The notes beneath the pieces are model-generated. The model saw only the letters and a program-made list of their open reading frames with translations. It was not told the DNA's origin and made no database searches. DNA of 64,000 nucleotides, from the NCBI GenBank assembly GCA_963514005.1, contig OY740814.1:7750001-7814000 (forward strand), read 5' to 3'. A program made the translations under genes and the position numbers. Positions 648-59,130 of this stretch are shown piece by piece. Each line of letters opens with the position of its first letter. The first letter of the stretch is position 1. Source of the DNA: Raja brachyura (Eukaryota).

Positions 648-3600
648 CTGTGAAAAAGAGATAAGCGGTATTCCCATTTCTGTACCAGTAGTACTGAAGG
701 GACTGATTGGAGTAGAAAACTGTTTGCTCTGGAATTTTGCAGGTAGGAATATAGTGACAGTGCTCATGACAAGCATCAGTGAATCCTAACCACAATAATC
801 CAACCACTTCTCCAATGCAGACTTCTCTTACACAAACATAAGTTGCTGCTTGACATCAGCTCTAGGGCAATACCAGCCTTCAGTGATACACAGTGTTAAA
901 GTCTGAAGAAGGGTTTCGGCCCGAAACGTTGCCTCTCTCCTTCGCTCCATAGATGCTGCTGCACCTGCTGAGTTTCTCCAGCATTTTGTGTACCTTCAGT
1001 GATACACAGGCTGGGCTGTTGGTTATATTCATGAACTCTCACCCACCAAACAAGGAATTGAATATACTTAAAAAGCTCGTGTAAAATTAAGATCATAACA
1101 TTTGCATAAGATCAATGTAAAAGCAAAACTCAACAATAAAATAAAACCTGAAGGAGGAAACTGCACATGCTGGTTTACACTGAAGATAGACACAAATTGC
1201 TGGAGCAACTCAGCAGGACAGGCAGCATCTCAGGGTATAAGGAATGGGTGACCTGTCGGGTCGATAACCTTCTTTAGACTTCTTCATAATTTTACAATTG
1301 ATATGGAAATGTGAAATATTTATCCAAGCAATTCAAAATTTACATTTAAAATTACTTTTTTAGGCCAAGGGATAAAAGTACGGTTTAATATGCCATTAAA
1401 ACTAATTTAACACACAAAAGGACACAAAGTGCTCTAGTGAACATGAATATGTGACGTTCTTCAGAATGAAGGTTGCTATCAAGGTCCTTACCCACAAGCA
1501 TTTAACCGAGTTGTGTGGATCTCTTTGAGTCGCTTGATCTGGGAGTGGTGCATAGGTCACAGACAGCAAATCATTAAAACCATGTCCTCGGCTGGTTTGG
1601 ACAAAAAGGCTTAAGGGAGTTGAGCCTCAGATAGGAAAATGGACGTATAATAAATGGATGCAGACTTCTCTCAGAAATAACATTATTTTTCAATATTCTC
1701 TTCATAAAGCAGCAAATCACATTGGGCTATCATCCATAAACTTTGCCAGCATATGACACCTTAGCAGAGTGATCATTTTGGTCTAGATGTCTAGACAGCA
1801 GGGTTCCAGAAGTTTTTTCCCATGCAATCAAACTCAGCTTAGTCTTTACGTAAAAGATAATACATTCTGAATGTTTGCCCTCCTACATTTATTGTGGTTC
1901 TACTGACACCAACCAAAATAATGCAAGCGAATATTCAGACTACATTAAATATGGTGTCATTCTTGTCTGTGCAATTCTATACTTGATTCTGCTGCATACA
2001 CAATTAGGATTTGAGGACTATCACTATCAGTTATCTTAAATTGCTGTTAATTAATAACACAATGCAACTTTTTGTTTTTGTTTAATTGCCATTTGATACT
2101 TGACATTTTCCAAGGAAAAATGAATGTAGCTTAGCAATAATTCAATTAAAACAAAGATGTTAGCTAGTTATTAACTTCAAAAGACTGATAGACTGAGAAA
2201 TAATGGAAAGCATTATAGCTCATGTTGTGAACAGATAATATTCACGTAATATTTCACTTTAAACTGAGAAATACCAGCTTGCGTTGCGAATGCATAAAGC
2301 ACTTCTTAACTAAGCAAAACATTTGAGGCAGTCCATCCACTCTCACCTACAATCAGATGTGTGATTTGACATGGTTTCCCTCCAAAACATCACCCTCTCC
2401 ACCCACGATTTCTGGAAGCTCCATTTTACCCATGTGCTTTTATCTACTACTTTCGTTATACTTGCTTGTGAATACTTAAAACTGCCGTACCTTCTCAATG
2501 CACTTGCGGAGTGTATTAATATTTCGAATCCACCAGCCGACTCCCATGGCTTTCAGATCAGACCACTGAGGATCCCCTTTTTGCATGGCAGGAATCATAC
2601 TGAGCAACTCTTCCTCAGCTTCAGAATGAAAGGCCCAGGCAAAGTGACATGTAGACAAGCCTACAAAATGCAGTAACAATTTTATGTATATATAAAAGAG
2701 TTAGTGATCCAAGTTGCTGTGTTAAATATATGCAAAAATATCAGTCCAGATGCAATGTGTAAAGCGAGCTGTTAAAAAACGATTAGAATGATGTCTAATG
2801 ATGCAATAAGAAAAATCGTGACATAACATGAACACTAATTACACTTTCAACAGATAGTAAAGCTACTTATGAATATTCATAGTTATAATCAAAGTCAATA
2901 CACTGCTCAATTACTTATTACAATTCAAATAAGACCTCAGTCTTTGCACAATGTTTTATCCACATCATATCAATTTGCTTTCAGTCCTGCCCACAGGATG
3001 AAGATACAGGATTACATTAATCAATACAACAAGATGAAGGGACAGGATTACGCTAATCAATACCCGTGACTGCAGTTTTGGTGCAGGGCACCACTCGTGC
3101 TCTCGGTTTGCCTATGTTGCTCAGCATGGTCAACCATTTCATTCACCCATATTGCCCACTCCATGCCACCTTACTCCACATAATGTTTCCAAAGAGGGCT
3201 TCTCCTCCAGCCCGCACCAGCTCCATTATGCTTGGTGTGCCCCCAACTTTTATCGTCAGCTTTTCCCTTCACCATTTATACACCAACATATATGTTATCC
3301 AGATACAGTGACAGTTTCTACATTTTACACATTCTACAATTCAACTCTGCAACTATTATCATCTAGCTTGTCTTGGTTTGACCAGAACCTCCTCAAACAC
3401 ACAATGAAAAGCAAGTTTATTCTCCTTTTGCCTCAACTATTCCTGCCCATAGTTAATTATCGGTAGACAAAAGTGCTGGAGAAACACAGCGGGTGCAGCA
3501 GCATCTATGAAGTGAAGGAAATAGGCAAAGTTTCGGGCCGAAACCCTTCTTCAGACTCCCTACCGAAGTGCCCTACCAAACTCAGTTCCACATACCTAGA

Positions 3601-5950
3601 CTCCATCCTATCCCCCTTGGTTAAATCCCTCCCTAATATAAAAACTACGACCACATTGTTAATTATTCTTCAATCATTATTTTGTGGTTGTTGAAGCACC
3701 CATGAACACATTGAATTCGAACTACTGTCATTTAGAATTAAAATTCCACTTACTAATTGCTCAAATAGCTTTTGGAGAAGAAATGGCATATTATAAAGTC
3801 ACAATACTTCATTTGGGATATATTGTGCTCAGCATACAGATTTTTTTTTAAAGCATTGAATAGAGGTTAATAGATTAATTCTAAACTGAATTCTGCCAAC
3901 TCAAAATAAACGATGGAACAAGCCTCTAGGCAAGGAAAATGAACGACCCTGATTGCAGTGCACATTTGGACAGACAAGAATACATTGAACCTTTGCCAAT
4001 GATGTCCTTGTTCTTTTGTAACACAAAGGAATCAGTTTGGTAGGATAATGGATTTTTATTTTTGCGGGGTAACAAAGCAATCAGCAACATTTAACCTTGA
4101 GGAAATGAAGAAGGTTGTACAAAAGAATACGAATGAACCTTTGTTATTAACAGGCACGGAAATAGCTATCAAAACATGGGGGGGGGGGGGACACAATTTC
4201 TTGGCGGCCGCGCGAGCTTGCGCACATGTACGCACGCGAGGCTTCGGGGGCTTCGGCCATTCGCCCTGTGGACGGTAATTACGGGAACGACGGCCCAGGC
4301 TTATGGCCAGCGCGGAGAAGCAGCGCTAAATCCTGCTCAACTCTGCCAGTCTCACCAGGTTAACCTACAGCCCTGCCTGGACTGATGGGACACCAGTCAG
4401 GAGCCGTGGAGCTAGCATTGCTTTTGCACACTGGCTGTAAACCTGGGCTGTCATTCCCGTAAGTCCAGGCAGGGCTGTAGGTTAACCTGGCGGGACAGGC
4501 AGAGTTGAGCTGGATTTAGCGCTGCTTCTCTGCGCTGGCTGTGGGCTTGTGGGCACTGCTCCCATCTGACTCCCAATGTCTCTGGCCAACCCCGGGCGTG
4601 TGGGGGAGCACACGGATGGGGACGGGGATGGTTCAGTGGCGGTTCGGCACAATTGCAGTGTCGGAGACCCGAGATTGATCGTGGCTGCAGATGAGGCACA
4701 GGTCTGTGTCCAGGGTGTGGAGTGTGGAGCCGAGAGTGTTTTTCGCTTGTGACCCTATGACCTGGGCATGCAATTCAAGCTCCACTATGATCTTTGCTCC
4801 ACCACGACGTCTCTCTCCTCCAATCACCGCGCTCTATCCTCAGTTCCACATCCCCTACTTCCGCCTCTGACCGACACCTCCCTCCTCCAATCATCGCTCT
4901 GAATTATCATGGTCTCTCCCTCCCCCCCCCACCCCACATTGCCTGCTGTCCGACGTCTCTCTCCTCCAATCAGCGCCCTTGATCATCAGACCCACTCCCA
5001 AGGTCTTGCGGAAAGTGGGGATTTCACCGGGTTTTAAAATCCAGATTACAAAAAATGGGGGGGATCGTCTCTAACCTCTCAAAACTTGGGGGGGGGGAGT
5101 GAAACATGTCCGCCCCTGGTTATTAAACTAGTGGTGATGTTCTCCATTATTAACATTTAAGAACAAATTAATGGTTTATAGTTTAAACATAACACAAGCC
5201 CAAGCCAAATGTTACCAAAACCAGATTGGGCATAATTTAGATATTTGAAAAAAAACAGGTCTTGCTGCTATCAATTATTTTTTAAGTTAATTGTAAAGAA
5301 CAGCCAGAACCTAAAAGTATTTTATTTCAGACAAAACACTTTCCAGCATTATCATTATTTTTCACATTGTAGCTCCCAAATTATAGCAGCAATTTTCTTG
5401 TGCCAGACAACAAAATGACCCAGGGCTAGAGGCACAAGTATCAGGAATGGCATAACATCCCACGAAAGCAGAGGTTCACTGTTTTAGTCCTCTTCTTTGT
5501 TTGGCCAGCTTCAGAACATGCTGAAATGTATGGTAAGCAAGACGAGGGAATACAAGGGCGGGGGCAACAGATGAAGGCCGGTCTTAGGGGGTTTGAGGCT
5601 AGGAGAAGGATGCAGGCAGAGAAAGTGTGGGACCTCAGGAATATGGAGTAAGATAACAGAAGGAATAGATATTCATGTGGAAGCACACACAAGTATCAAG
5701 TTGGTTGATATAATGAAGTTGGGGAGACCGGAAAGGCAGCGGACACAAAATCTTGCAGTGCAACATGGGTAGTAATGACCTCAATGACAAAGGAGGCAAT
5801 GGGAACATCAGCACACAGACAATCAGTTGCCTCAGTGGAATTGAAACTTCACTATCATGTGCTCCAGGTTAGAATGTATTGTTTATGGCTGCCTCCACCT
5901 CTCCACGAGGAAATTTAAAAAATAATTATGTTATTAGTGTGTATGTGTGA

Positions 5951-5982
<32 letters not shown>

Positions 5983-8900
5983 TCTATGGAGAGAAGGAAT
6001 GGGTGCCCTTCTTCAGAGGTTTCTGGCCTCTGGAAATTGCCCTTAGTGTGCAGGGAGCAGATGTGAAAATGGGATAACGCAGAACTAGCGTGAACGAGTG
6101 ATCAATGATCGTTGTGGCCTATTTCCATCATGTTTCTCTAAACTAATCAAATTGTTCTCGGACCCCTTACGTGCCCCATACCGGCTCCAGTGTCTATACC
6201 TGGAATGAATGGGACTCCTGCTCAAAGGAAGATAATGACAATTTCCGTGGTCTGGCACCAGTCAGATCCCAAGGATGCCGGAGAAGGGAGTTTCAAGTCG
6301 TAGTTAATTCCGAGACATACAAATAAAAATGACAAAAAAACGATTATCATTTGAGCTCCTACCTTGATGTAAAAGCTGGAGTCTGTAGACTGGAGGCAGC
6401 GATGTCAGCAGGCAAATATGCAAACGCATGGCAAGCAAATAACGTAAACCACATTCATCCAAAGTTTCACCTCCAATAAAAACAGACAGATTTTAACTCA
6501 GCTGGCGATAACCAGGGATACTAATGGAGATGCTCACATATACTGCATGCATTGCGTATTACAACTTTCCCAAATGAATTGCATCAGAAAATTAATGGAT
6601 TTTAAAATCATGCTAGATTGCCTTAAGTGTTTTATTACAGCTTACATACTGATTTTTTGAGACAAGTAGGATTACTAAATTCTATTCACTTTAAGATTTG
6701 TACTGTTTAGAAATAACTGCATTACTTGCTTGCAGTTACAATTATGAAAAACACTTTAGTCAATGTTGAAGAATAAAACAATTTGGAAGAGCATGAAGAT
6801 GGAGAGAAATATAATTCAAATATTGAGAATTTACACCAGTGGTTTCTTTCTGACAACACGGCATACTGCGCACTGGCACCTCTTACAAGTTGAAAACTAG
6901 ATTTTCATATTTTTAGAATTTTTAATAATTACTGGTTTAACAAATAAAATCAATAAAATTAGGTGGCCACGGCAGTAAAAAGCAGGTAGCTTATAGGACG
7001 ACGATCTGCTCTAGACAACAGCACTGAACGAGATGAGTTTCAGCAACTGTCTGTCTACAAAAAAGTACTAGACACTGCACAATTTAGATCAATTATAAAT
7101 TAAAACAAGGCTTATTAACATCCTTGAGGTTCATATAAATGTGCGTTAGTTTATATAGAGAATTGCAGAAAAGCAATTAGATGGACGATTCATATGAAAT
7201 ATACTAGAAAATATTAACTACTTGGCCCATCAGGGTTTCTCATTTAAAATATATATTGTCTCCCTGACATGGCTATTTTCAGTCATTCAATGAAGTTCAC
7301 AGACAATGATAGACTAATTTTAGGAGGGGATTCTTACATTGATAAACTTATCCAGATATTAATGAGTTCAGCAATGAATCTGAGATCCAGAGTCAAAACT
7401 CCCTGCTATTTATATACTCCCAGGAATAACTCCCCACTCTAAATACTCCCAACATCAATTCTATTTCTCAGCCCATAGATGCTGTCCAGCCTGCTTGTGT
7501 TTTAGACTTTTAACATCTCCAGTTTTATCTTTAAATGTTCAGAAGCGACAAGTCTAATGTCTCATCCAAAAGATGGCCTCTCCAATATTGGAACACTAAC
7601 TACACCATAGTGCTAAGCCTAGAATTCAACTGTAAGCTCTGGCTGGGATTTGAACCCAGAATCTTCTGCTGGAGTTGATAACTAGATCCCAATCTGAACA
7701 TTTGGCTCAATACTAAGTTTGTAGAATTTCTATAGAAAATATAACCAGCTGGGGTATAAAACAGGCAACAAACCTGATCCAATTAGCTCAACAGTGAATA
7801 AAGTAGGTAAAATATATCCTTGCTTTATTTATAAATCAAAAATAGTAATATTAATTGCAATGTTTGACTGGAAATATTTTGTGAACTAATTATCTGACAC
7901 CACCACATTTTGCATGTTGCTCTGTTTCAGCAAATAAGTATGCCGTTTTCAAAATCTTATTGGTAAAACCCACTACTATTGTACAAATGTATAAGTTTAT
8001 GCTATCATTATAATAGAATTGATATAGACTTAGAAAATAACCCAAATGGTTATATACGTACCAGAATAATTCTTGTCTCTATTTTCATTGACTTCTGTGC
8101 TTGTAGTCGCCACCGTGTCAGCTAAAGCTACAAGGAACATTTGTTCTAATCGTGTAAGTCCTGGCAAACTCGAGTGCATCAAATGACTAGAAAGGACACG
8201 AGCGTGTTCAGGCCCAAAGTATGTCGGTCCATACTGGGATAAATTAATGACTTTGGATTTAGATTCCTTCTTTTCAATTACAAAGTCAACAAAGTCATCA
8301 GTGGTTAAGCTTGGAGACTGAAACAAATCAGCATACTGATCCTCCATTTTTTTACTCTGCGGCTGTGAGCGTTTGTCTACTTTAGCAGTTTCTTCCGCAG
8401 TTTTATAAGAGGTGTCCTGATCAGCTGACAGCAAAGCATAAAGAGGTAGTGGTGGAATTGAATCTATTTCGGTATAATCACGAGTACCCTCTCTTCCCGC
8501 TATAATTGTATCCTTGCCCGTACTTCCACTGACGCTGATGGTTCGAGAAAGGTGGCGTCGTGGTCCTCCTCCTACTCCTGGGTCTTTGTCCCTGAAGATG
8601 GCAACTTCTCCAGCAATACATTTAACCAAATGTGAAAGGATTGCCTTCGCTCTGCGCACTTTGCCCAAATCCATAAGTTCCAGTAGCTGAGTGGGATGAT
8701 ATTGAGGGAGAGTGGGGGAAAGAATATGAGCAGCTTCAAACAAACCACCATCTTGAAGCATTCCTGGGATCCCAAACACATCATCTACAATAGCTGCTCC
8801 ATCAACAACACTGTGCCGTTTTGGAAACATTTTTGTTTCAAATGTGTCACCATCGGTTAACTCATCATAAGATGAGAAACTTCCATTTTCGGTATGGTTT

Positions 8901-11900
8901 AATGGTTTTGTAGAGTGCTTCCATTGTGCATACACATGCATTTCACAGTCCATCCCGATAACTAGAATGCCATCTCTCACCCACGATAAAGAAACTGGAA
9001 GTGATGGAGTTCCATCTACAGAAGATATCAGATCCACACATCTCAGCAATACCCATTTTGACTTGGTGCCTTGTTTAATACTTCCCCCTAGTGGCAAAGT
9101 AATTACAGCCAACCTATCTTTACTCGTGGCTTGCTCTGTTACAATCCCTGACAATCTTCCATACATTAGAATCTTGGAACCCACTCCTACGGTGAGTATG
9201 TGAGAACCATCTTCTTTCGACACCCAGTCCAAATGCACTAAATGTTTTATGTTGGACATCATGTTTTTGCCTCGAAGATAAAGCTCTGATTTATTATACA
9301 CAAATAAATTGCTGTCTATGCTGACTCGCGAATCCAGGACACTGCCAACTTTTCCCAAATCATCCAAATGAATTGTTTGTTCCAACACCCACTCTGATCC
9401 TCCAGTAGATTCACACTCAAAAATGGAGAGGTGCATTGAAAACTCTTTTGATGTAATGCCATTAGGTTGTAAAGACTCCTTGTAAGCTACAGCTAAGCGG
9501 CCCGTGTATGAACAGCTCACAGCCACTGGACGCCCAGTGACACTCACTGCACTGTCATTGTGTTCTCCTTCTTCATTCATCAGCGGCCAAGTTTCCCACC
9601 AATAGGCACGTATGTCTTCAGAATTTTCAGAGTTTGCGTTTCTATCCACAGTACATCGCCAGAATCTCACATTACCGTCAGAGCATGACGTCACTATTAG
9701 ATAAGGTGCAAGGCAGACTGGATAAATTGAGGAGGAACTCAAGTGACCTAAAAGAAAGAAAAACTATTATAACAGTGAGACATTCTCAGTCAAAGCTGTA
9801 GCACAGAACACATGAAAATGGCACTGGGAAAATGGCGATAATTTGCACCAATGGAACGTTAAAGGTGGTATCCGCTTGGGGGAAGATGGACAAGTCAGTC
9901 CTCTCAAGCACTTTAATCACCAAAGCAGGTTCTAACCCTGAAGAATTATTAAGTGTTCTCTTCATATTATGCAACAAATATTTGTATGGCGACATCAGTA
10001 TTTGGGGCTGATTATTCAAGCAGTATACTAATCTCTTTTGGTTCCCCCAACATTCTTCACTTTCATCACCACCCCTGTCACTCTCTAGTCCTGCCCTGCA
10101 ATGGTACACCTTACAGAAATGCCCTAGTGCATTCGTGCGTAATGCCTTGTGACTCGTTTACGATTGAATTTTACAATGGCATGTCATCAAACCGTGTGTA
10201 TGTGTGCCCTCCCATGCACCACCCTATTAATATTACCAAACAAGCACTACTTGTCATGTTCATTGCTTACATCTACAGCACTGCTAACCTCAACCTTTCA
10301 CTGTAGCCCGCAAACAAAAGCTTTTTACGGTATCTTGGTACGCGTGACAATAATAAACCAATACCGATGCCAATTACTCAGACCATTCCGCAAACACTTC
10401 AATTTACCCAAACCAGCACCAAGCTTCAAAGCTGCCTCTACAGGTTGCTAATGGTTGTTACAAGGATTGTAGCCTGTGTACCATTTTACCATCAGAACAT
10501 GTAGATGTGCACAAAATCGAGGGAAAAAAGACTACATTAAATAGAGGAAAAAGTTACCTGCAGAAGGCGTTGCTCGGATTACTTCCACTCCATCAGGCAG
10601 ATTTAACTGTTGACTATAAACTAATTTGGAGTTAAGTATCAGTTTGCTAGCGGTCTGAAGATTTGCGACTGATGCAGAGCGTGGTAGCGAATTTGGAGAC
10701 AAGCCAAAACTCTTGTCTTCTGATAAAGTCAGCAGTTTCTCTGATGTGCTCACTTCTGTCATCAGTATTATGGAGAAGGAAAGAGAAATGCAAGAATTAA
10801 TAAATGCAACTGTGAAATATTTTTACTAATCATCAGATATGCTTCCTCAACCATCTAGCATCACTATTGTAAACTATCCCTGCTCCTGGTGCAGACACAA
10901 ACAATTTGCACCCTGCCAATGCACCTATCCAAATGCTACTCCAGAGAACTCCCCTGAAGTCAAAGACTCCCCTCAAGTACCACTGGACTCCTTGCTGCTC
11001 AGTTGAGTTTGGTTAAACAACACCCCCATTCCAATTAATGGGCAAAATCGGTTTCTGGGGAAAATCCAACCCCAGGGAATGGGAAAAACAGCAGTTTGAG
11101 CTAAACAAATAATGTTTTTCATTGATTTTTAGTGTATGAATGTGCTCTCCAAATTCTTTAAATGTATCTTTGTATTTTTTTTAATTAATTTCTGCAACAA
11201 ATAGCATGGTTCACTGCTGCAAAGTAGGTCTTATATTGTTAAATCTCTAATTTCAGCAAATTACTGCACTGCAGTGGCATTCCAAGGTTACTGGGGTCAC
11301 GCTTTCTGTCAACCGATTACTTGTTTATGCAGCAAACCGTATGAACTGAACCAACTCAATCCCATCCCTGGGCCTGCACCCACGAACACCAGTGCAACAC
11401 AGTACTTGCATTGAAAACAGAAATGACCTAGATTCAAAAATAATAATAATGGAACCGCCGATGCTGGTTTACAAATAAAAAACTGATCAGTCTGAAGGAG
11501 GGTCCTAACCAGAAATGTCACCTATCCGTGCTCTCCAGTGATACTGTCTGCCCAGCTGAGTTACGCTAGTACTTTGTGACAAGGCATTTAAAGTATAAAA
11601 TAATTGCCTATCTAGTTTAACTATTTCACCCAGCGCACAGAGGTTAGTAAAGCCATTGACCTGCAAACAATCACAATTAATAAAAAGCCAATATTACTTT
11701 TCCACAGATATACACAACATGCTGGAGTAAATCAGCGGGACAGGCAGCATCTCTGGAGAGAAGGAAAGGGTGACGTTCGGGTCGAGACCTTTCTTCAGAC
11801 GTCTCGACCCGAAACATCACCCATTCCTTCTCACCAGAGATGCTGCCTGTCCCGCTGATTTACTCCAACATGTTGTGTATATCTGTGGAAAAGTAATATT

Positions 11901-14900
11901 GCATTTTATTAATTGCTGCTGGTCCCGCTGAGTTGCTCCAGCATTTTGTGTCTATCTTCGATTTAAACCAGCATCTGTAGTTCCGTCCTACACATTACTT
12001 TTCCACAATTCTCTGCCCAAGTTGGTTGCAATGTTCTGAAGTTCATGAAGTTAGTTTGGTAGGTTCTTAGTTATGCAACTTCAATGGGACAGTGCTAATT
12101 TCATACAGAATTTTAAATCAACCCATGTGCGATACTTTCATACACCTACCCATACGAGGCTGTTCAGACTTCAAATGAAGGTGCCACATGTGAAGAACAG
12201 ATTGACTCTTGTCTCGTTCGATTACCACAAGGTAGAACTTTTCAGAGAATGATGGTGCATGGAATCCTGAAATGACAGAAATGCAAACAATTTAAAAAGC
12301 AACCAATCTTCCCATTGAAATAAGAGAAAGCATGATAGAGCTTTGAGCCTAGGTATTATATATGAAAGTTCAGCATAAGAAGACGGAGAACAAAATGATA
12401 TTTATATCAAATTACATCACTAGAAATGATCTCCAAGTGTTAGGAAGTGTCTTATCCAAAGAAAGGAAAAAATGTAGGAGATGAAACAGCAAATAAGACA
12501 AATGACAAGTTAATGAAACACTTCTAGGAACTCTGACATTTTGAGAAACACGACAAGATACTTTTTGTCCAGTTAACAGGAGTGCTTTTCACTCAAATAT
12601 CAGCACAACAGTGCAAAGTTCCTTGGGACTGCACCGATGTGTCAGTTTACCTTTTTGTAATTAAATACTGGACAGTGATCAGAGGCAAAAGAACTCCCAA
12701 ATGAAATAAAAAATAGATTGGAGTAGATTTAAGCTAAATACTTGGTCAAAACATACCAAGTTAAAAGACTTTACAATTGACCCAGCATACCTTGTGCAGG
12801 TTGAGTAGAGGAAAATTCCTGCTCCTTATTAATTTTTTCTTCTAGTGGCTTATATCCCAGAATAAAATCTTCTTGGAATACATGAAGTAGTTGTGTGTTT
12901 GAGCCACACTGAAACAGTAATATTACAGGGGTTTAGTCAAACACATCACATTAAATATCAGCAGTTGATTTGTAAATTGGAGATTTCACATTAGGATAGT
13001 CATTCTCCATCCACCGAGAAGCCCAAGTGATGAGACCTTTGGATGGAAGTGGTCTCAGAGCTTCAGTAGGTTCCATACATGACTAGAAACCTTATACTAG
13101 AGCTTTAATTAACATTTACTCATTTATTACAGGGTATTTTAGTGAAAGGAGGAATGATCTTGACTGCACATGCATGGGGGGGGGGGGGGGGAGAGAGAAA
13201 GAGGGTAATGGAGAGAGAGGTCACATGTCAGTTTTGTACAACGTTATGAAGCCCCAGCAGCTAAATATAATAAGTAGAATGATCTGTGTGATGAAAACAC
13301 AATTTGCACAATTTCTGAACACAAAGTGAGCCAAAATGTACGGCGAACACTACATCCTACAATTTCACCATTGCCAATTAACTCAAGAAAATATAACTAA
13401 TCCTCCTTCAACTTGTATTTCACGTTCGATTATGGGGAGAGCTTTTAATGTGTACATTAGCACTAATGACTTAAGTAGGAAAAGGGATGAGATCCTGCAA
13501 AGTGAATATAGGATGTCTGGCGGAAGATTAAAAAGCAGGACACTGAGGGTAGTAATGGGATTACTCCCAATGTCAAGTGCTAGTGAGGGTAGGGATAAGA
13601 AGATAGAGCAGAAGTATTATAAAGATAGGGCAGAAGAACTTAGAGCCTGGATTGGTGCTCGGCACTAGGATGTTGCGTCCATTGTTGAAACGTGGTTGCG
13701 AGAGGGACACGACTGGCACTCGGGTTTTGATGTTTCAGATGAGATCCAGAGGGAGGAAAAAGAGGTGGAGGAGTTGCACTGCTAATCAGGGAGACTGCCA
13801 AGGCAGCACTCAAAGAGGACCTATTGCAGGGTTTGTCCACTGAGGCAATAAAGAAAGGTGCAAGGACTCTAATGGGATTGAACTATATGTCCCCTAATAG
13901 CAAATAATAGAGGAACAGATATGTAGGCAGATTACCAAAATATGCCAAAGCAACAGGATTGTTTTAAAGAAGGAACTGCAGATGCTGGAAAATCAAGGGT
14001 ACACAAAATGCTGGAGAAATGCAGGATTGTCTTAGTGGGCGACTTTAACTTCCCCAATATTTACTGGGACTTGCTCATTGCCAAAGGCTTAGATGGGGCA
14101 GCATTTATGAGGTGTATTTAAGAAGATCTCTTGAAATAGAATATGGATAGTCCAACCCTAGAAGGGAACATACTGGACTTTGTGTCGGGAACTGAGCCTG
14201 ATCCATATTCTGGTGTTGCAGTGGAAGAGCATTTTAAGGATAGTGTTCACAACTCCATGAGCTTTAAGATTTTGTGAATGGAGAAAAGGCTGGAACCTGC
14301 GGGAAGATGCTACATTGGAATAAGGTAAATGACAAAGTTATTAGGCAGGAGCTCGGGAAGGAGTAGTTTGGGCAAGTCTACATCTGACCTGTGGGAGTCG
14401 TTTAAAGGGCATTTGTGCGTAGTTCTGAACCTGCATGTTCCAATAGAGAGGAGGGATAAGGTTGCCAAAGTAAGAGAACCTTGGATGACCAAAGAGATTG
14501 TAAATTTGGTCAAAAAGGAAAAAAGTAAGTACATGCAAAATTTAAGTGGGCAATTTTTTTCCATACAAAGCATTGTTTGAATTTGGAATGCACCGAAGAA
14601 TGATACTGAAGACAGAGAATCTCATAGTTTTTAAGTATTTAGATGAGCTATTACATTATATTTACAATTAGATTATTTCTCTGGCATTACAAAAGAGGTA
14701 AAATCCACATCATATTTCACACCAGTCCAAATTTCTAACCTGAGCAGTTATTACATCCAGTTCAATAATGCAACCGGGACGAGCTGTTGATTGCTGGCTT
14801 ACTATGTTGAATACTTCACCAACAAGTTTCTGCAAAAATGATGTAATAAAATATCAAATGCAGCAGTTACAAACACAACATACGCAATGCAAAAATAATG

Positions 14901-38900: not shown

Positions 38901-41900
38901 TTTAAAGGCCTATTTGAATGCTGTAAGACTCTCAGACTTTGTGGTCAGTCCACCCTTTTGCTTCAGGCTACATTTAGAATACATTTCAACTGGGTTAATT
39001 TTCAGAAAATTTAACCCAGAATGATTTCAAGATATCCAAATTGTCAACAATTATAGTGCAGCCAATAAATGCCGGTCTTGCAATGGATATCCACATATCA
39101 TTAAATCACAAACAGAAGGAGGCTTCCATTTTTTAATTCAATAAACTGCCAAGTATTTCACTATATTTCCACACATGTACTGACATTGACAAAGGCATTA
39201 TTACTATAGGAATATATAGTACAAAAACAGAACTGGCACATCATAATTATCAACATGCTACCTTATCTTCACTTAGAAGCACCAAAGTTAAGGAAATTGT
39301 AAAAATTCTAAACAACGAGGATATGACGTGGGGCACAACACGGAATATTTTGCTGTACTTCATGGAGATTAAAATTGAAAGATAATTTGCATTGTTTATG
39401 CTATGGAAACTAATTTATCCACAGTAAATCTATAAAGATCCAAAACTCATCAGGTTGGATATTATAGATGTATTACAAAAATGGTAATATCTATTGTCCT
39501 TCTTGCCCTATACCAATTTGTTAGCAATTAGAACAGAATTAGAAAAGGAAGCCATTCAGCCCCTTGCTTGTTCTGTCATTCAATAGGTTTGTGGCTGATC
39601 GTTTACCTCAGCACCACATATTCTAGGGTATCCACTCACATATTACTGTTGACCAAATAACGCAGGGTTTGAAGCAATAGTTAAATATTTTACTGAAAAA
39701 TGTTTTGTCTAGTTTAATATGGCTCAGCTACAAAAATTGAAGGAATACAGAGCTACAGAAATAGTTCAGAATCAACTGAACACAATCAGGCATGTTCACA
39801 CCATTTCTTGGAAAGATCGTTTACTAGGAGCTTTGACAAAGAAGAGTTGTGTGCATGGCCTTGGCATGCTTCATATTTGACAAATTATAAAAATGTGATT
39901 TTTCCAACTCTATATCAGACAGCACTTGAAACAGACAAATTTGATTTTTTGCATTCTCTAGATAATTCTAGATGATGCAAAAAAAAACCCAATCAGCTCT
40001 AAAAACTATATACAAAGTATAAAAATTACCTCTAGGAAAATAAAATATTATATTGTAACATTTTCAAAGAATAACTGGAATACGTGATAATACTCACAAG
40101 TTTTCTTTTGTAATGCCTTAATGATACGGGCTCAAAAATGCAAACAGTGTTTCCATAAGATGCAGCAATCTATAAATAACACAATTAAAACTTATTATCC
40201 ACTGTCTGAACCTTTGATCATCTAAATAGAACAGAAACATCACAACGTTCTGGAAATAATGTAAATTCAATGCGGTGTACAGCAGGTTATGCATTATCAC
40301 TGTACCCAATTTGTCATACTCATAACAATTTGAAATTTCTCCAAGCCTATTCACTATACAGATCCTCTCCAGTTCACAAATATCTGACATACGTACAACC
40401 TGTACATATGAGTATTTGGGAGATCAGTGGGGTGGATTTGTCTGCTGCAGGCATCAGGGATTCCCCACAGGGGAACTCTATGCAACCACATTTCCATCTT
40501 GTGAACTATTTGAGTCACAAAAAGTCCACAGAAACAGAATTCGGAAACTTGTAACTTAGGGAAGACTTGTACTGGATAATTATATCATTAGGATAAAACA
40601 AGATCAAAAACAGAATCCTATGTGTTGGTTCTTCAATTACATTGAAGCCTTATATAACTTGCAATGAGACAACAGCTGGTGGAAAGCATTATCTGAAAGA
40701 GAAGTATTAAACAACAAGCTCACATCCATGCTGGAGTAACTCAGCGGGACAGGCAGCATCTCTGGAAAGAAGGAATGGGTGACGTTTGGGGTCGAAACCC
40801 TTCTTCAGAGACCAGTCTGAAGAAGGGTTTTGACCCGAAACGTCACCCATTTCTTCCCTCCAGAGATGCTGCCTGTCCCGCTGAGTTACTCCAGCATTTT
40901 GTGTCTACCTTCGATTTAAACCTGCATTTGCAGTTCTTTCCTACACATTTTTTGCAAGCTCACATCCATGTAGGTTCGATATACATTCACTGGATAATAA
41001 GCACCAATTGAAGCTCCTCGGCACGTCCAAGCCACAAATCTAGCATTCAAGAGTGCCATTCCATGTTGAGCAGCAGAAACTTGGCAAGTGTCTTGCATTT
41101 TATGACAAATCGTGCTACTCACTACATTGCTGATAAGAAGTATGTCACATCTGCGAAAGGTTTAAGCGCATACATCAACTCAACAACTAGCAAGTATCCC
41201 CAGCAAGCTAAGGGCAAAATAAGTGTTTGCAGGTGTGTCCTGCAGGTGTTCCGATGGCCCATGACATGCAAGTAGGTTAATTGGCTATTGTAAATTATAC
41301 CTTAATGTACATTAATGATACAAAGAATCTAGGGAGAATTAATGGACACGGGTGAGAGAAAATAGGTTGCAGAGGGTGCAAAAAAATAATGGGGGAGTGA
41401 AATGGCAATATTAGGATACCCCATAATTGTGGTATTATTTAGCTAGTAATGGGCGACACAGCAGTAGAATTGCTGCCTTACCGCACCAGAGTCCCGGGAT
41501 CGATCCTAACCTCAGGTGCTGTCTGTACGGAGTTTGTATGTTCTCCCTGTGACCAAGTGGGGTTTCTGCAGGTGTTCAGGTTTCCTCCCACATTCCACAG
41601 ACGTACAGATTTGTGGGTTAATTGGCTTCTGGAAATTGTCCCTAATGTGTAGGATAGAACTAGTGTATGGATGATTGCTGGTCGGCGTGGACTTGGTGGG
41701 CTGAAGGGCCCGTTTCCACACTGCATCTCTAAACTAAACTATCCTCCCGTGGGTGTTAACATAGTTCCAAAGGGCCAAATGACTACCTGTGTTATCATTA
41801 TAGGGATCAGTTCAAGCCTCTTTGGCCTTGAGTAAAGGTAGTTCCAAGATGGCAGAATTCAGATGGACGTTCCGACACAAAACAACTCACGGGGGAAGAA

Positions 41901-43620: not shown

Positions 43621-44383
43621 AGTGATGGTCTTGGCATCATGTTCAGCACAGACTGTGCTGCACTGTTCTATCATACCTCTTCAAACTTAAATCCCCTTGG
43701 GGTTTTTTTTCTAATTTTTATTCTATTCTACCTCAGCTGTGCCTGGCTTCAAATAACTATTGTTATTATTGTATTTCTGGATTATCACTCATTTTTATCT
43801 TATTTCAATTTTGTTCCTACTGCGTTAATCTAACCTGCCACACATTAAATAATCAAGTCTACATTTCAAAACACCAGAAGGAATATGTAAAAAAACTGGC
43901 TTAATGTCTAAAGTTGGACGGTAGCATCCATCTGGTTGAAGTGCTTATTTCCAGTATGCAGCAATCTTCTATGTTGGAGAGGGTGACAGGGGATGAAGGC
44001 TGCAACCCAAGACATTGCAGCAGGTCCTGTAGTGCCAGAAATTGGACGATTAGAAGCTGCTTAGAACTTATTGCCTGAAAATAACTGGAAGTTGCTTGAA
44101 AATGCTAGCAGCGGCACACGCAACTGGCAGCATCCCTCAGTTCCTCACCATGGTCATGTTCTCTGCACAAACCAGGTCCCAAATATGCTGGCGGAGCTTC
44201 ACAGATAGTTCCCTGACTCTGCTCCATACTACATCAGTGGCAATAGCACAGACGCTGCAGATTTCTAATACAAAAGCTAGTTGGATGAGTATAGGAACAG
44301 CATGTCCATACATTTCAATGGAGAGGAATGACTGCAAGGGATTTAGACAAGGAAATTGGTTAAAAAATAATTTAACTTGTTGT

Positions 44384-44475
44384 TACACAAAAAGCTGGAG
44401 AAACTCAGCGGGTGCAGCAGCATCTAAGGAGCGAAGGAGATAGGCGACGTTTCGGGTTGAGACCCTTCTTCAGAC
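44384..44475 (-). mobile_element. Short Penelope-derived element with intact hammerhead-like core
   Basis: 14-bp TSD ATTTAACTTGTTGT (44370-44383 and 44476-44489); minus-strand CTGAAGAAGGGTCTCAACCCGAAACGTC at 44473-44446. Confidence 0.85.
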
Positions 44476-49103: not shown

Positions 49104-49148
<45 letters not shown>

Positions 49149-49853
49149 GTGGGTGTGCACGTCAGCAGCAAAGTTATATACAACGGGGGTTACACAAAAG
49201 GCTGGAGAAACTCAGCGGGTGCAGCAGCATCTAAGGAGTGAAGGAGTAAGGAGATAGGTGACGTTTCGGGTCGAGACCCGAATATACAAAGGGCTTGTAC
49301 GCGCTGGCAAGATAGGTTTCCTTTGTTCTCGTCCGGGGCTTCAGAGAGATCGGAGGGAATTAAGCCTCCCTTGCACACCACTCCCTTGCACACCACTCCT
49401 AACCCAAGAGACTTGTCACCCCAGACAGATTAATGACGCCCCCCCCCCCCACCCTCCCCAACCTCCCTCACGCCTGGGGACCAAAGCAGCTCAGGAGGCG
49501 AACCCTGAGCTCCGTCTCCCAACAATCTGATGCGCATTTTCCCTCTGTAGGTCATATTAATAGATGCAGCCGCACTGATATCTATCTTTAACTCAAAGCC
49601 ACAGGATGGAGATGTTTTCTTTAACATTGTTGCTTTATTAAAACATACCTTCATTCACGGTTGGCTCAAGTGTAACGGGAGAGGAACTTGGTAACACGGG
49701 AGAGCACCTTGGCACATCGTATAAAAACATGCCCGTGGGAACTTGGTTAAAAACTTGACCATAAACTTTGTATCTCGTGCATAACCACGAGTCCGTTTTT
49801 TTTCTTTCACTTGGGGTCACTCTTGGGTGGACTCGCACCGTGAGACAGGGCCT
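47860..49853. mobile_element. About 2-kb non-autonomous PIF/Harbinger-type transposon with nested repeats
   Basis: TTA TSD (47857-47859 and 49854-49856); about 45-bp imperfect TIRs AACCCCTGTCTCACGTTGCGAGT.. / ..ACTCGCACCGTGAGACAGGGCCT. Confidence 0.78.
49095..49149. repeat. (GA)n microsatellite
   Basis: Direct reading. Confidence 0.9.
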
Positions 49854-50896
49854 TTACTAAAGGAAGTTACAAAATGATCAAATAATCTGAACAATGCGTT
49901 AAGCCACAAGAAAGTACGTTTAACCATGAACTGATAGTGGCAACAGTTGAAGATAATATCCTTTAAGTCACTGCAGCTAAAGTGGAGAGGTAAGCTGCAG
50001 CAAAAATAGAAAGAACAAGAAATCGATATCCAGTTCAAAAATATATGAATGTAGTCATATTTGCAACAAAACTCAATTGAAGAAAAAAGAAAATGAGTTT
50101 CTCTAAAAAGTATGATTTGAATTTTATATCTAATTGCTTCCTACAATGTTAATTCACTGCTGCATTCAAAATAACCTTCAGTTCCCGTCATCAATAAACA
50201 TGTCAAACAGAATGTGTCCTATGTTAGAGAGAAAAAATATCACTTGTCTTAACAAGAGTAAAAATAAAAATCATAATATGCCTGTAAATCACTCTGCTTC
50301 TTTAATCAGCACTGTTTCTACTGAATCCACCGTGCTGCTGAGAGCCATCTGTCAACCAACCCTATGCGATTCTGTACTGGTGCATGTTATCATATAGATG
50401 TTAGGAATGAAAAAAAGTAAATTAGCTATCAATCGTACATTATCACTAAATGGAAAACATTGATGGGTGATCCAATTCCATAAAAAAAGGACTTAACAAT
50501 TTTCGTTTTTATTTTGTTGCTTTTAGACTGGGTATGTGTGAATTTTTTGCTGTCCAGCATTCATAATGGAGACATTTATTTAAAAAAAAATATTACCTAG
50601 AAAGTGCTTTGTAAATTGCTATCCGGCCAAGTCAAACTCAGGCCAGCGATAACGAAGGGAACCACCAGCATTCAGCCACTCCAAATAATTCCTGGACATA
50701 CAGACTCTCTGCTAGATTGGGCCATGTCACATGACAAACGCCAGGAAAGGAGTCTACAGAATTCCCTAGCATTACTTCAGGATATCACCACTAATTTGAC
50801 GCAGGAATGGTAACACCTTTGTTTGAATGGTGATTTCAGGGCCTGTTACACAAAAAAAATCTGTTTTTATTGTTTTAAACTAGTTATTTATTTCTA

Positions 50897-51027
50897 ATGT
50901 GTAGGAAAGAACTGCAGATGCTGGTTTAAATCAAAGGTAGACACAAAATGCTGGAGTAACTCAATGGGACAGGCAGCATCTCTGGAGAGAAGGAATGGGT
51001 GATGTTTCGGTCGAGACCCTTCTTCAT
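50897..51027 (-). mobile_element. Short Penelope-derived element
   Basis: tgtgtaggaaagaactgcagatgctgg...gagacccttcttca. Confidence 0.8.
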
Positions 51028-54347: not shown

Positions 54348-56599
54348 TGTACTTCCATGTGTTTGTAGAATGCAGGTGCAAAAGGGATTACTAATGATGT
54401 GACACGGATGAAGCCGCAGTTAATGCTTTTTCAAAAATGCCTTTAGCTTTTTTTCCATTTTGGGACATTTCATGTCAATGTCTTAGTATAATAGGTCACC
54501 TCTTTTAAAGCCCAAATGAAGAAAATCCTGAGGGAACACGTGTTTGCAGCATGAAAGTGATCATGAGTCTTTGTCTCATTGCACCAGGAAGCAAGTTGAT
54601 TTTGTATTGGCAGAGAAAATAAGTTTTCACCCTCATTTGTTCTGCTGCACTACTCTGGTATTGGAAAAAAAGTGTTTTAAAAACGCAGATGTTATTAATG
54701 ACATTGCAGGTTTGGATGTAGCATGCTCTCTAGAAAATGTGCTTTTTTAAAGGCTGGTATGTCATTAAAACATGTATAGTACTGAATAAATTCTTATTTT
54801 TTCAATCCACAGCTTTAAGTATGTTTCATTACAATTAGCATCAAAATCAGGAAGGAAAGATTATTTACCTCTGGCAGCACTGAGTCATACTGTTACAAAT
54901 TTATAAAATACCCAGGTCTTCTTTTGTTTTTGAAAAATGTGGAGGAGATTTTTATAAAGTTTCCAACTTCAATTCAGTTAATCCATGTAAATATTGCATG
55001 TAATAGCTAATTAGCAAATCACAACTATGTGACTTCATATATTTTAGCACAAAATGAATGTGAACACAAAAAAATGGAAAATGGATACTAAAGGGATATT
55101 ACAAAGCTGGGTACCCAGGATTATTTCCAGAACAGAAACATGATTACCCACAAGTCATTTAATAGTGAAAATATAAGTTTTATTTTTTAAAGTAAGCAGT
55201 GTTAGTACCATCACAACATACCACCAAACACTTGCACAAGAACCGTTTCCATCTTAAACAAATAAAATATTTTGTTCCATTTTAAACAGTTCCCTCCCCA
55301 AAAGTTATAGTTCATGCTAGCTCAGTACTCAGTACATATACCAGTACTCATTTAAAATGGTCGTTTGGAAACTTACGCGATCATAATTATATATACAAAT
55401 GAGTGACATCCCAAAGGGGACAACCAATCTTGAAACAGATTTCTACCTCCATCTTAGGCAGCGGATATGAAGACCAATTCTTGCCTACATGATCCATCCT
55501 CACTCAAACCAGTACTTTCATTCAGCCTCTTATGCAAATATCGAGTTTTCTTTTGCTCAGTAACAACTTATATTCACATAGCATCTCAAAGAAATAACAT
55601 TGGGGAGATTCAGGATCAGAGAGATTGTAACTTATAAAAGAGGTTTCATCTGGAATCAAACAGTAGCCAAGGAAAAGAATGAATTCCATGGAGTTAGTGA
55701 TCAGAATTTTAAACAAGTTGGAGGTAATAGAACTCCATAACAGTAAAACCTTCTTTAAGAGTTTACAATTGTCAAATGTCAATGTTCATGAAACAAGACT
55801 ACAACGAAATGTCTTCCCAGAAACGAAATAAGTAAAGGAAGAAAATCATAAGTCCAAAAATAAAATCAATCCAAGTTGAAGGTCAGAACATCCATTATCT
55901 CTGTTGCCTCCAACAATGAACAGAGGTTTGAGAGTTTCATTTTCACCTTCGCCTGCTGGAAAACACTGGCAAAAATCATTATTTGAAAATCTAAAGCATC
56001 CCGAGCTCCAATTATTAATTCAGTTTTTTTTGTTGATTGCTATTTGTTGATGCAGATTTGGAAATCACAGGTACTTCTCACATGTTCTCCAATCCTTCCT
56101 TGCATCTTTAAACAACTTCTCCAACCACCAACCCCCAGAAGTGTCAGAAATGAAACTTCAACATTTTTTATCTGCAAAGTTATGTATGAATTTCATCATT
56201 TAAGGTCACCTCACCACCAGCTTATTTCACCATTCTGCATGCATAAACATAGTATCTACTCCACAAATGCCAAGTGGCAGATATCATTTTTGCAGCTATT
56301 CTCAGTCTATGAATTCAGAGTTAATATTATTTTTATTCGGGTAAATTTGTCTATTCTCTGTTAGTGGAGTTTAAACTGGATATAGTACCATTTAGGTTTT
56401 TATTAAAGGGCTACACACAAACTCATCTGAGAATCACATGGACTTTGAGGCTTGAAACTAACGGATGTACATGTGCAATAATTTACCCATACCTGCTTGA
56501 ATACATAGAAAATAGGTGCAGGAGGAGGCCATTCGGCCCTTCGAGCCAGCACCAAGCCAGCGACCAATACATTTTCAAATATCTGGTACACTTAAATTA

Positions 56600-56694
56600 A
56601 AGTTTGAAGAAGGGTCTCGACCCGAAATGTCACCCATTCCTTCTCTCCAGAAATGATGCCCATCCCGCTGAGTTACTCCAGCATTTTGTGTCTA
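56600..56694 (+). mobile_element. Short Penelope-derived element
   Basis: tttgaagaagggtctcgacccgaaatgtcacccattcc...ccagcattttgtgtc; imperfect flanking duplication tacacttaaatt / tacatttaaatt. Confidence 0.78.
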
Positions 56695-57269
56695 CATTTA
56701 AATTCACAACTGGTTTCACTTTACAAGAAATCAAAAGAACATGCAAACAAAGCCAGTGAACAACATGTAATGAAACTCAAAGAAAACTCTGGTGCAAAAG
56801 GCCTCTTGGTGTAATTTGATTTAAACCTTACAGAATACACAAAACTATTTCAACACATGTCTTTTCAATGAATCCAGATATTTGATTTCAACCACCATTG
56901 TTGGTTAAACCTCAAATTAAGCAATGAAAAACACTAATTTTGGAATTGTTTATTCCACTCTAAATATACTTCGGAAGCTTATTAAATATCTAGTTCATAT
57001 TTGAGTCAACAATAATCACTGAATTTATCATAGGTTTACAAAGAGTAACACAATCTTAATTAAAATTATATTTAATAAACCAGAGCATATGACACCATCC
57101 TCTATTGCTCAGCCTACGAGCATGAAGTGCGAATATAATTAGGGCTCGGTTCCCTTTAAAAAATGCTTTCTCTATACTAATAGACAGCATCCAGCAAAAG
57201 AAAAATAGGGATATATGCATTCTCAAATAGATGCAAAAGATTCCATTGAACTTTTATAATAAATGCAGC

Positions 57270-57950: not shown

Positions 57951-58715
57951 ATAGGTACATGTATTTTGGAAGACCCTAAAAACTCTTGAACAAGTATAAA
58001 TATATAATTTTATTTTTTTCATTTGTGCATTCATCCATAATAAAATGGTGTTCTCAGGAATACTTTATTTTCTTTAAAGGGAAGATTAAGATCATTTGAA
58101 TGCAAAAGTGTATATCCTATACTAGCCCTCTCCAGCTTTCGAGCCTCCAACACATGAATAACCCATGTGAATGAATACTTGGGAGAGTAGTGGTACGAAT
58201 TTGCCGACTGTTGCAAGGCTGCAAGAGATCTTCTGTCGTGTGGGAACTCAGTTTGGAGCTACATTTCCGAATTATTGAACTGTTCAGGTTACAGTAGTTG
58301 AACTAAAAATCTCGGAAATGTTGAGTATGGTCTAATACCTTGTGTATCTAATCCCTTTACTGCTATGCTATTTCACAATATGAATGTATAATATAGCTAT
58401 ATTTTTCATTAAAACATTCAAAGAAAATACAAAAGGTAAATGTATAATACCTTGGAGCAAACTTCACATTACAAGGATTGTGCCATTATGCACATCTATA
58501 TTCAGGTATGTAATGCTGTGTAAAACTTTTATTGGCAACAAAATAATTTGCTTAATGAGAAAATGTAGTTTCAAGTTATGTTTGAGGCATAGTCCATATT
58601 TATTACATAAAACATTGAGTAGTACAGCACAAGAACAGCTACATCAGCGCATTATGCCAGTGTCGAACATTATGCTAAGACCATCTCTTATCTACCTGAA
58701 CATAATCCATATCCC

Positions 58716-59130
58716 GAAGATAGACACATAAAGCTGGAGTAACACTGCGGGACAGGCAACATCTCTGAAGAGAAGGAATGGGTGATGTTTTGGGTCGAGA
58801 CCCTTCTTCAGACTGGTTAGGGATAAGGGAAATGAGAGATACAGACAGTGATGTGGAGAGATGTGAATGAAAGATATGCAAAAAGGTAACAATGTTACTT
58901 TTTGCATATCCTTTATCATCTTTACTTTTTTGCATATCTTTCATTCATTGTTCTTTATCTCTCCACATTACCGTCTATATCTCTTTTTTCCCTTATCCCT
59001 AACCAGTCTGATGAAGGCTCTCGACCTGAAACGTCACCCATTCCTTCTCTCCAGAGATCTGCCTGTCTTAGTTACTCCAGCTTTTTGTGTCTATCTTCTG
59101 TTTAAACCTGTATCTGCAGTTCCTTCTTAC
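58716..59130. mobile_element. Long fold-back Penelope-derived insertion nested in a CR1 3' fragment (CR1 about 58620-59400, minus strand)
   Basis: 16-bp TSD ACATAATCCATATCCC (58700-58715 and 59131-59146); inverted arms of about 170 bp. Confidence 0.88.

Follow-up and report, generated by a model that had tools for sequence, protein, structure and literature searches.

Short hammerhead-like repeats in the genome of the skate Raja brachyura as apparent terminal pieces of Penelope-like retrotransposons

The short repeats dispersed through the 64,000-nt stretch of R. brachyura DNA analysed here (the window) are, as judged from sequence comparison, terminal (pLTR) pieces of Penelope-like retrotransposons (PLEs) and not a separate mini-element. 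The sharp 5' boundary that they share most likely marks the start of a capped RNA, not an RNA structure. An earlier sequence-only reading of the window had linked the repeats to PLEs, and this link is now borne out by an intact element, L081; its further proposal of a distinct family of PLE-mobilised mini-elements is not supported: counterparts linked to an ORF exist for four of the five sequence types, and pieces attached to ORF-start sequence show this 5' boundary as well.

Copies in the window and in the genome

The window holds 21 copies of the family, 10 on the plus and 11 on the minus strand; one count gave 20, and a 61-nt tail-only piece without the core (13959..14019, minus) brings the total to 21. 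Genome-wide, the copy number is roughly 0.9-1 million. This abundance is much greater than chance would give: one exact 33-mer of the repeat has 9,355 genome matches against none for its reversed control, and a minimal-hammerhead descriptor gave 38 matches in 714 kb against none in the reversed sequence. Exact words were counted 55,821 times for positions +45..79 of the repeat, 35,406 for +2..33, 10,971 for -11..+20 and 770 for the ORF start.

Among the solo copies, the short PLE end at 900..997 (plus; -3..+95) has all 13 core bases intact at 903-930, a 17-nt target-site duplication (CCTTCAGTGATACACAG) and six extra bases at its 5' junction. The young short end at 44382..44475 (minus; -2..+92) has an intact core at 44446-44473 and a 14-nt duplication (ACAACAAGTTAAAT), and is identical at 93 of 94 positions to the 3' end of L081. 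The short end at 3462..3557 (minus) keeps the 13 core bases at 3527-3554 and has lost the ACGU palindrome; it lies in inverted orientation to an adjacent PLE reverse-transcriptase (RT) coding fragment (3568..3685, plus; 89% over 66 nt to L081, tblastn E 1e-5). The remaining ones are a young end from +8 with an incomplete core (49187..49279, minus), an end with tail starting at about +1 (50896..51026, minus), a short end with C3 mutated (56601..56698, plus), a decayed end with tail (1151..1280, minus) and two old decayed ends (11487..11578 and 27054..27169, both plus).

Head-to-head pairs occupy five loci, near 11.8k, 28.1k, 40.8k, 58.9k and 61.1k. The locus at 11706..11996 joins a minus arm (11706-11800) to a plus arm (11802-11884), with a further plus piece carrying a tail (11914-11996); the pair at 28059..28267 has a tail only on its plus arm, and the one at 40728..40949 consists of a minus arm without tail (40728-40809) and a plus arm with tail (40811-40949), whose core at 40817-40844 has all 13 bases. 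At 58715..59134 the arms are longer copies that include the PLE 3' UTR, and the 226-nt plus arm (58909-59134) carries a tail and the core at 59008-59035; the pair at 61013..61171 is old. Head-to-tail tandem units with a hammerhead each were not found in the window. Short tandems were seen elsewhere in the genome (L025, L255 and L302).

The sequence-only reading had put the unit at 90-130 bp in more than a dozen copies and had named four best cores, at 903-930, 40817-40844, 44446-44473 and 59008-59035. The cores are all at these positions, but the 59008 copy departs from the description, being a 226-nt arm of an inverted pair in which stem II, said to be kept, is broken (GGCT/ACCT) and C11.1 is changed. 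All 13 core bases are retained in only four of the 21 copies (903, 3554, 40817 and 44473).

A large host-gene exon on the minus strand (8030..9763) encodes a Rav1p_C domain of the DMXL/rabconnectin-3 type; a PDB sequence search with this exon returned no matches. The suggestion that minus-strand copies are sense in the DMXL2 pre-mRNA stands as to a minus-strand DMXL/Rav1-type gene, at the family level only. We found no strand bias relative to the gene (10 plus and 11 minus in the window; 62 and 66 with 200 kb of neighbouring sequence included), and since most window copies have also lost core bases, an effect on the host pre-mRNA is unsupported.

The intact element

In L081, two cores flank a 1191-aa RT/GIY-YIG ORF. 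Its direct pLTRs (2481-3116 and 6476-7098) are 97% alike and form a partial tandem, as in L083, and 892-1471 is an inverted 5'-truncated copy. The ORF carries, in order, DKG, DVQSLY, GVAMG, YIDD, a CX4CXXC linker and LVY-CXXCXXC-YIG; Pfam recovered RVT_1 (E 5e-4) and GIY-YIG (E 2e-3), both under the curated cut-offs, and a PDB sequence search with the ORF gave no matches. The features that characterise EN+ PLEs are all present: a single ORF with RT and C-terminal GIY-YIG, direct pLTRs, an inverted truncated copy and a 30-40-nt tail option. So are two features of the Neptune clade, the CX2-5CXXC linker (CNRKRCYTC) and the two cysteines inside GIY-YIG (LVYCIRCSRCQLIYIG). By these motifs, rather than by an RT phylogeny, the element would resemble EN+ PLEs of the Neptune/Nematis type, which share with it the single RT-GIY-YIG ORF, DKG, the linker, the GIY-YIG cysteines, the partial tandem pLTR, the inverted truncated copy and the optional 30-40-nt tail at one end (Craig et al. 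2021, PMC8557442). Unlike the elements described in the available part of that work, the skate ORF has a long proline-rich N-terminal region, and skate insertions are most often units of 95 or 130 nt whose 5' end is fixed.

The short copies can be tied to this element in several ways. Among the matches listed, chosen by ORF alone, the core follows the end of GIY-YIG in 21 of 27. When 119 copies were aligned against 93 references (of 98 ORF-linked copies), four of five sequence types had ORF-linked counterparts, and one older type (17 of the 119) had none among these 93. Target-site duplications of 8-19 nt occur in 31 solo young copies, as well as in the window copies at 903 and 44473, with no poly(A) end; an inverted partner accompanies 41 of 126 young copies, and copies end at either about +90-95 or +127, the tail being optional. 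Four RNA-run contig sets (24 runs listed) at L081:2830-4300 contain the pLTR core, three of them with ORF pieces; we draw no conclusion on expression from them, as contigs give no start, end, strand or level and the RNA status of the runs is a guess.

The hammerhead motif

The motif matches the minimal PLE hammerhead described in the literature and can be regarded as a predicted ribozyme. L081 and the subfamily majorities have, within the pLTR, the conserved core, an extra base before helix II, the G10.1-C11.1 pair and palindromic positions 15.2-16.2. Metazoan PLE hammerheads share the CUGANGA/GAAA/UH core, the extra base between 9 and 10.1, the G10.1-C11.1 pair and the palindrome, with no real helix III; there too, two motifs flank the ORF and most motifs are dispersed singles (Cervera and De la Pena 2014, PMC4209133). 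The minimal type I anatomy proposed earlier is thus matched, and the extra A before stem II, which the earlier reading had given as a caveat, has been published as a feature of these ribozymes. The ACGU palindrome assigned to helix III is kept in the subfamily majorities and lost in the 3554 copy. Helix I has only GU/AC or GU/GC pairs, with U-A or U-G kept across subfamilies; the usual PLE helix I has 4-5 bp, and a variant in Drosophila virilis, which the predicted skate helix would resemble, has 2 bp (PMC4209133). Other differences from the hammerheads in the available part of that study are a helix II of only 4 bp, a likely position at the very start of the RNA, and about a million repeat ends compared with thousands of motifs in coelacanth and Xenopus; the hosts named in that part include no cartilaginous fish.

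Conservation of the core above the element average is only suggestive: the majorities of the five subfamilies differ at 1 of 13 core positions and at 23 of 77 others (p=0.08; 9 of the 119 copies, in small clusters, were left out). Non-CpG decay is 6.0% in the core and 8.5% in the rest, a comparison confounded by base content and hidden subfamilies. The predicted hammerhead fold lies 1.1 kcal/mol above the free minimum, and none of six folded sequences was more stable than its shuffles (z -1.4 to +1.5). Cofolding of two 38-mers produced no hammerhead dimer, which is a weak test for a protein-assisted ribozyme. An Rfam scan of the window gave no hammerhead match at E<=1; its six weak microRNA-precursor matches were discarded as fold-back artefacts, four of them on the inverted pair at 58.8-59.0k. 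Inserted copies are mostly decaying: all 13 core bases remain in 37 of the 119 aligned copies, and most window copies lack some of them.

The 5' boundary

The sharp edge a few bases before CTGA, noticed in the earlier reading, is confirmed. Among 126 young copies selected with a 3' 35-mer, 71 start at -7..+4, none at -38..-8 and 31 extend past -39, and only four start at the predicted cut site (+28/+29); in copies of all ages, 122 of 278 start in the hotspot. Starts at -12 to -32 are few in a wider set. At 59 of 74 ORF-start sites, a piece that stops within +185..266 is fused to a new element start. At these ORF-start junctions, which like the rest of the junction analysis concern the youngest subfamily only, 17 of 24 hotspot starts have an untemplated G in front of them, as against 1 of 30 other starts (p=1e-7), and a hand count among 100 matches listed found it at about 30 of 52 unambiguous junctions. 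Junctions with host DNA show a modest excess, with G at 32 of 73 against 27% expected (p=0.001; Fisher p=0.09 against other junctions). An extra G at the 5' junctions of full-length L1 has been read as a copied cap (PMC11702581), and the untemplated G here likewise points to a capped transcription start in place of the RNA structure that had been suggested to define the boundary. Most copies would begin just before the motif because a capped RNA likely starts there. The hotspot starts scatter across about 10 bases, and in many of them the first base is C(-4), which is unusual for Pol II; AAACGTC might be read as a DPE-like sequence. Since the bases added at hotspot jumps form A/G-rich runs, a terminal-transferase bias may contribute to the G.

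A second, small class of starts lacks the G and hints at rare cutting or at RT stalling. Five of the six starts in +3..+90 fall at +29..35, just past the cut, and genome-wide the bin ending at +35 holds 15 G-less junctions against 2 (upstream) and 7 in the flanking bins (p about 0.003). Some loci carry one junction repeated two or three times. A +241 to -70 junction occurs at both L264 and L302, which may mean that certain short units are copied again.

Discussion

We consider it likely that RNA with a capped start, internal RT initiation, run-off and jumps together explain the short ends. Pol II would start at dispersed sites (-6 to +2) around YCAGT, and RT would start inside the RNA at +94 or +127, by likeness to an anole PLE in vitro, reach the RNA 5' end and copy the cap. 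From there, joining to the target would give a solo short copy, pairing with a second arm a head-to-head copy, and a jump to +185-266 of an RNA a tandem copy; starts at the 3' pLTR would give the usual longer copies that are truncated at the 5' end. In most templates the hammerhead is probably uncut; in a minority it is probably cut or folded enough to stall RT. The inserted copies would then decay.

Internal RT starts and the tail are documented for the anole Poseidon element PAc (Frangieh et al. 2024, PMC11167929), in which, as here, two internal starts define the tail, RNA beyond the start site is required and uncut RNA is the main template. The PAc ORF begins inside the hammerhead, whereas the skate ATG lies at +163, and PAc hammerhead activity, which is protein-assisted, was assayed, whereas the skate hammerhead is a predicted one. 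Transcription of D. virilis Penelope also starts inside the pLTR, whose regeneration had no obvious mechanism for its authors (Schostak et al. 2008, PMC2377424); its start (371) precedes by about 120 nt the end of an intron that abuts the hammerhead, whereas the start suggested for the skate element abuts the hammerhead itself, with no intron found.

A different origin of the short copies, as an independent, non-autonomous SINE- or retrozyme-like family that has master copies of its own and depends on the PLE protein for mobilisation in trans, seems unlikely to us. In its favour, the short copies far outnumber long copies, have fixed ends and target-site duplications, and include the older type without an ORF-linked counterpart (17 of 119 copies, 93 references); the +241/-70 junction recurs at two loci, and non-coding, hammerhead-bearing retrozymes derived from PLE pLTRs have been described in vertebrates, one cartilaginous fish among them (Li, Clavereau and Pollet, bioRxiv 10.64898/2026.07.22.740005). 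Yet young short copies hardly differ from the ends of ORF-linked copies, and the hotspot also occurs where a piece is joined to ORF-start sequence, something that a solo short master would not contain. Those retrozymes are by definition tandem arrays whose units each carry a hammerhead, whereas the window copies are solo or head-to-head. It is quite unlikely that a folded hammerhead, or paired unit ends, drops RT just past the motif: the boundary does fall on the 5' strand of helix I, and folding predicts that an RNA of -4..+127 pairs its 5' end with the tail, but this fold is no more stable than shuffles (z -1.4), RT should stop on the 3' side of a structure, 31 of the 126 young copies read straight through and the G is left unexplained.

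A 3' splice site at the boundary would recall D. virilis Penelope, where an intron ends at helix I (PMC4209133), and a pyrimidine-rich sequence with CAG does precede the core in all subfamilies. We find this very improbable, as 47 of the 71 hotspot copies start at -2 or earlier and so retain a C, A or G that splicing would remove, the 3' UTR is missing from none of the 98 ORF-linked copies, and no common upstream exon appears: 21 of 31 copies with a duplication of at least 8 nt have no base between target and element. Circular RNA made by ribozyme cleavage and ligation, as in the Cervera and De la Pena model, would account for the G-less starts just past the cut (both the five of six at +29..35 and the excess of 15 over 2 and 7) and for the loci with repeated junctions; as the main template, however, it is extremely improbable. 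None of 54 junctions joins the cut site to itself, the repeated junctions lie elsewhere, only four of the 126 young copies start at +28/+29, G-bearing and thus likely capped ends are not ligatable, and hammerhead mutants had no effect on anole PLE insertion in vitro (PMC11167929).

This is a known kind of element, and the hammerhead in PLE ends was already known; with the copies mostly decaying, there is nothing unusual in the motif as such. What gives the family its value is the junctions, likely a genomic record of how PLEs copy themselves. The PLE literature, in the parts available, leaves open how the pLTR is rebuilt, whether the template is sense or antisense and whether the hammerhead cuts in vivo; with its tens of thousands of nearly identical members, its likely cap signature and its jump junctions, this young family allows such questions to be tested directly, by counting and a few bench assays. 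A broader proposal, which we hold tentatively and with some doubt, is that junctions in their thousands record a capped sense RNA starting from the hammerhead, internal priming close to its 5' end, a strong-stop-like run-off product that makes up most insertions, cap jumps that build tandems and maybe the pLTR, and cutting of a minority of RNAs in the germ line by the minimal hammerhead. If true, this would provide genomic evidence that a minimal hammerhead of a PLE cleaves in vivo.

Repeat copies and parent element

Positions are counted from the C of CTGAAGA, which is hammerhead C3 and is numbered 0; the predicted cut falls between +27 and +28. Twenty-one family copies (10 on the plus and 11 on the minus strand) lie in the window, which includes five loci of head-to-head pairs and a host gene of the DMXL/Rav1 type on the minus strand; the four best cores named by the sequence-only reading were located where it had placed them. 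In the 2.7-Gb genome, one exact 33-mer from the core region has 9,355 matches and its reversed control 0. In a 714-kb set (the window, 200 kb of neighbours and 450 kb scattered), a minimal-hammerhead descriptor gave 38 matches, 37 of them in the PLE-end family, against 0 in the reversed sequence, and the 278 family copies found there scale to 0.9-1.05 million per genome.

The proposed link to Penelope-like elements was borne out by an intact RT/GIY-YIG element, L081, with a core in both pseudo-LTRs. Translation revealed the end of a GIY-YIG nuclease encoded upstream of some copies, and an RT fragment (window 3568-3685) adjoins an inverted copy. When 30 loci were picked by the GIY-YIG protein alone, 21 of the 27 rows listed had a core on the same strand, about 160-320 nt downstream of the GIY-YIG end; over all loci, a biased set, the core was downstream in 98 of 115. 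A search with the RT part recovered long open frames. L081 comprises a pLTR (2481-3116), a 1191-aa ORF counted from the first ATG, and a second pLTR (6476-7098), the two being 97% alike with one core in each, and an inverted truncated copy lies upstream; window 44382-44475 is identical to its end at 93 of 94 bases. Judging from the motifs of its predicted ORF (DKG, DVQSLY, GVAMG, YIDD, a CX4CXXC linker and LVY-CXXCXXC-YIG), the element is probably of the Neptune/Nematis type as defined by Craig et al. (PMC8557442). Its class and its individual features (pLTR, inverted copy, tail and minimal hammerhead) are already known.

Among 126 young copies, picked by a 35-mer at +45..79, 3' ends fall near +90-95 or at +127, a difference that corresponds to the optional PLE tail, which is often confined to one arm in head-to-head pairs. 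Target-site duplications of 8-19 nt flank 31 solo copies. Older PLE 3' ends or ORFs at four other loci (L006, L008, L044 and L097) hold young short insertions, and nesting seems common.

The window has other repeats as well. An element with 60-nt terminal inverted repeats 260 nt apart (22851-23230), a 240-nt palindrome (27609-27846) and an 85-nt inverted pair (4279-4539) are possibly MITE-like and unrelated to the PLE ends. At 53298-54387 (minus strand) lies the 3' part of a LINE reverse transcriptase whose open frames span 311 and 124 codons; we take the LINE to be CR1/L2-like.

The hammerhead motif and its decay

The anatomy of the motif matches the minimal PLE hammerhead described by Cervera and De la Pena (PMC4209133): an extra base precedes helix II, and the palindrome is present. 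A putative helix I of 2 bp would resemble that of the D. virilis hammerhead. An Rfam search of the window returned no hammerhead match. All 13 core bases are intact in only 4 of the 21 window copies, and stem II, which the sequence-only reading described as kept, is broken in the copy at 59008. The majorities of five subfamilies differ at 1 of 13 core positions versus 23 of 77 others (p=0.08). Of 119 aligned copies, 37 retain the whole core, in which CpG bases decay freely; on these alignments, it is therefore likely that master elements kept the motif whereas inserted copies did not.

In the tailed unit of L081 (2983-3113), the two ends (TGAAGAAGG and CCTTCTTTA) are complementary to each other; in the predicted fold, which has a z-score of only -1.4, the hammerhead 5' core is buried. 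Another locus, L152 (G000:C29:22000001-22010000), carries a different hammerhead-like motif with CTGATGA, a 3-bp stem II and possibly a helix I of 4 bp (AGTT/AACT); an older PLE family, distinct from this one, is its likely source. At L025 (G000:C1 near 6.549 Mb), the initial ~50 nt of the element recur head to tail several times, each with a core, forming a natural tandem.

Element starts, junctions and the untemplated G

Starts concentrate at -7..+4, where they were found in 71 of the 126 young copies, in 45 of the 85 lacking an inverted partner, and in 122 of the 278 copies of all ages. No young copy starts at -38..-8 and 31 extend past -39; a few starts at -12 to -32 are present in the wider set. 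Exact-word genome counts drop from 35,406 (+2..33) to 10,971 (-11..+20), and similarity between subfamilies likewise begins at YCAGT (-5..-1).

The ORF-start 30-mer occurs 770 times in the genome, and the junction analysis covered 74 of these sites, taken from the beginning of the listing. At 59 of them, the ORF-start piece extends to +185..266, where a new element start follows directly, giving 54 distinct junctions; the remaining 15 were left uncalled, some owing to indels. New starts lie at -7..+2 (24), -14..-322 (24) and +29..68 (6). An untemplated G immediately precedes 17 of the 24 hotspot starts versus 1 of the 30 others (Fisher p=1e-7), with 8 of 8 at -4 and 3 of 3 at -3; counting only junctions with extra bases, it is found in 17 of 20 hotspot and 1 of 6 other cases. 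A gap-pattern search gave 125 matches, and hand sorting of the 100 listed excluded 32 that were uncertain or represented the native upstream sequence of an older subfamily, and a further 16 in which the G was possibly templated; among these listed matches, G is present at about 30 of the 52 remaining junctions, three of which overlap the 74-site set. Junctions with host DNA show a weaker excess (32 of 73 versus 27% expected; 15 of 54 elsewhere).

For full-length L1, an additional G at the junctions has been interpreted as a copied cap (PMC11702581), and the G at hotspot starts leads us to infer that a capped RNA begins at -6..+2. As the jump junctions carry ORF-start sequence, their template is, on this evidence, elements with the ORF start and not solo short copies. 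The data favour sense RNA as the template, a choice left open in the available text of Arkhipova et al. 2013 (PMC3846280).

Two loci, L264 (G000:C1 near 28.06 Mb) and L302 (G000:C1 near 162.94 Mb), share an identical junction from +241 to -70, present three times in tandem in L302, which may reflect a re-copied 311-nt unit or a single template. At L255-L257 (G000:C1:10467051-10469868), a +185 to -6 junction occurs three times, distributed over the two arms of an inverted pair, as would be expected had the arms shared one template or had one been copied from its partner.

Because starts at the cut site are rare (+28/+29 in 4 of the 126 young copies, where two pairs look duplicated), the ribozyme appears mostly not to have cut the templates. 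Within +3..+90, an interval chosen after the fact, 5 of 6 jump starts lie at +29..35, all five without G. Genome-wide, junctions number 2, 15 and 7 in equal 12-base windows whose ends lie at +21, +35 and +49; with CpG roughly allowed for, 15 versus 2 gives p about 0.003. Of the 15, two begin at +28 or +29 and none upstream of +28, where power was low. This pattern may reflect either rare cleavage followed by slight loss or RT stalling before a folded hammerhead.

A proposed route of replication

We propose that the RNA likely begins at the hammerhead in the 5' pLTR and that the element protein probably binds near the tail and the start of the ORF, priming RT within the RNA at +94 or +127. Internal priming, with both target strands extended, is described for an anole element in vitro in the available text of PMC11167929. 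RT primed at the 5' site would run off the template after 95-130 bases and leave solo copies, two run-off arms would give head-to-head pairs, and a jump across the cap would yield the tandems seen at ORF-start junctions. RT starting in the 3' pLTR would produce ordinary longer truncated copies, and the pLTR could be rebuilt if RT jumped from the 5' end into the corresponding part of the 3' pLTR, a step for which Schostak et al. (PMC2377424), in the text available, saw no obvious mechanism.

Our literature search, which covered the main text of mostly open-access papers, found no description of this family in skates or rays, no published cap signature in PLEs and no account of run-off copies as the main PLE product. 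The value of this PLE-end family rests on its junction record, not on the motif.
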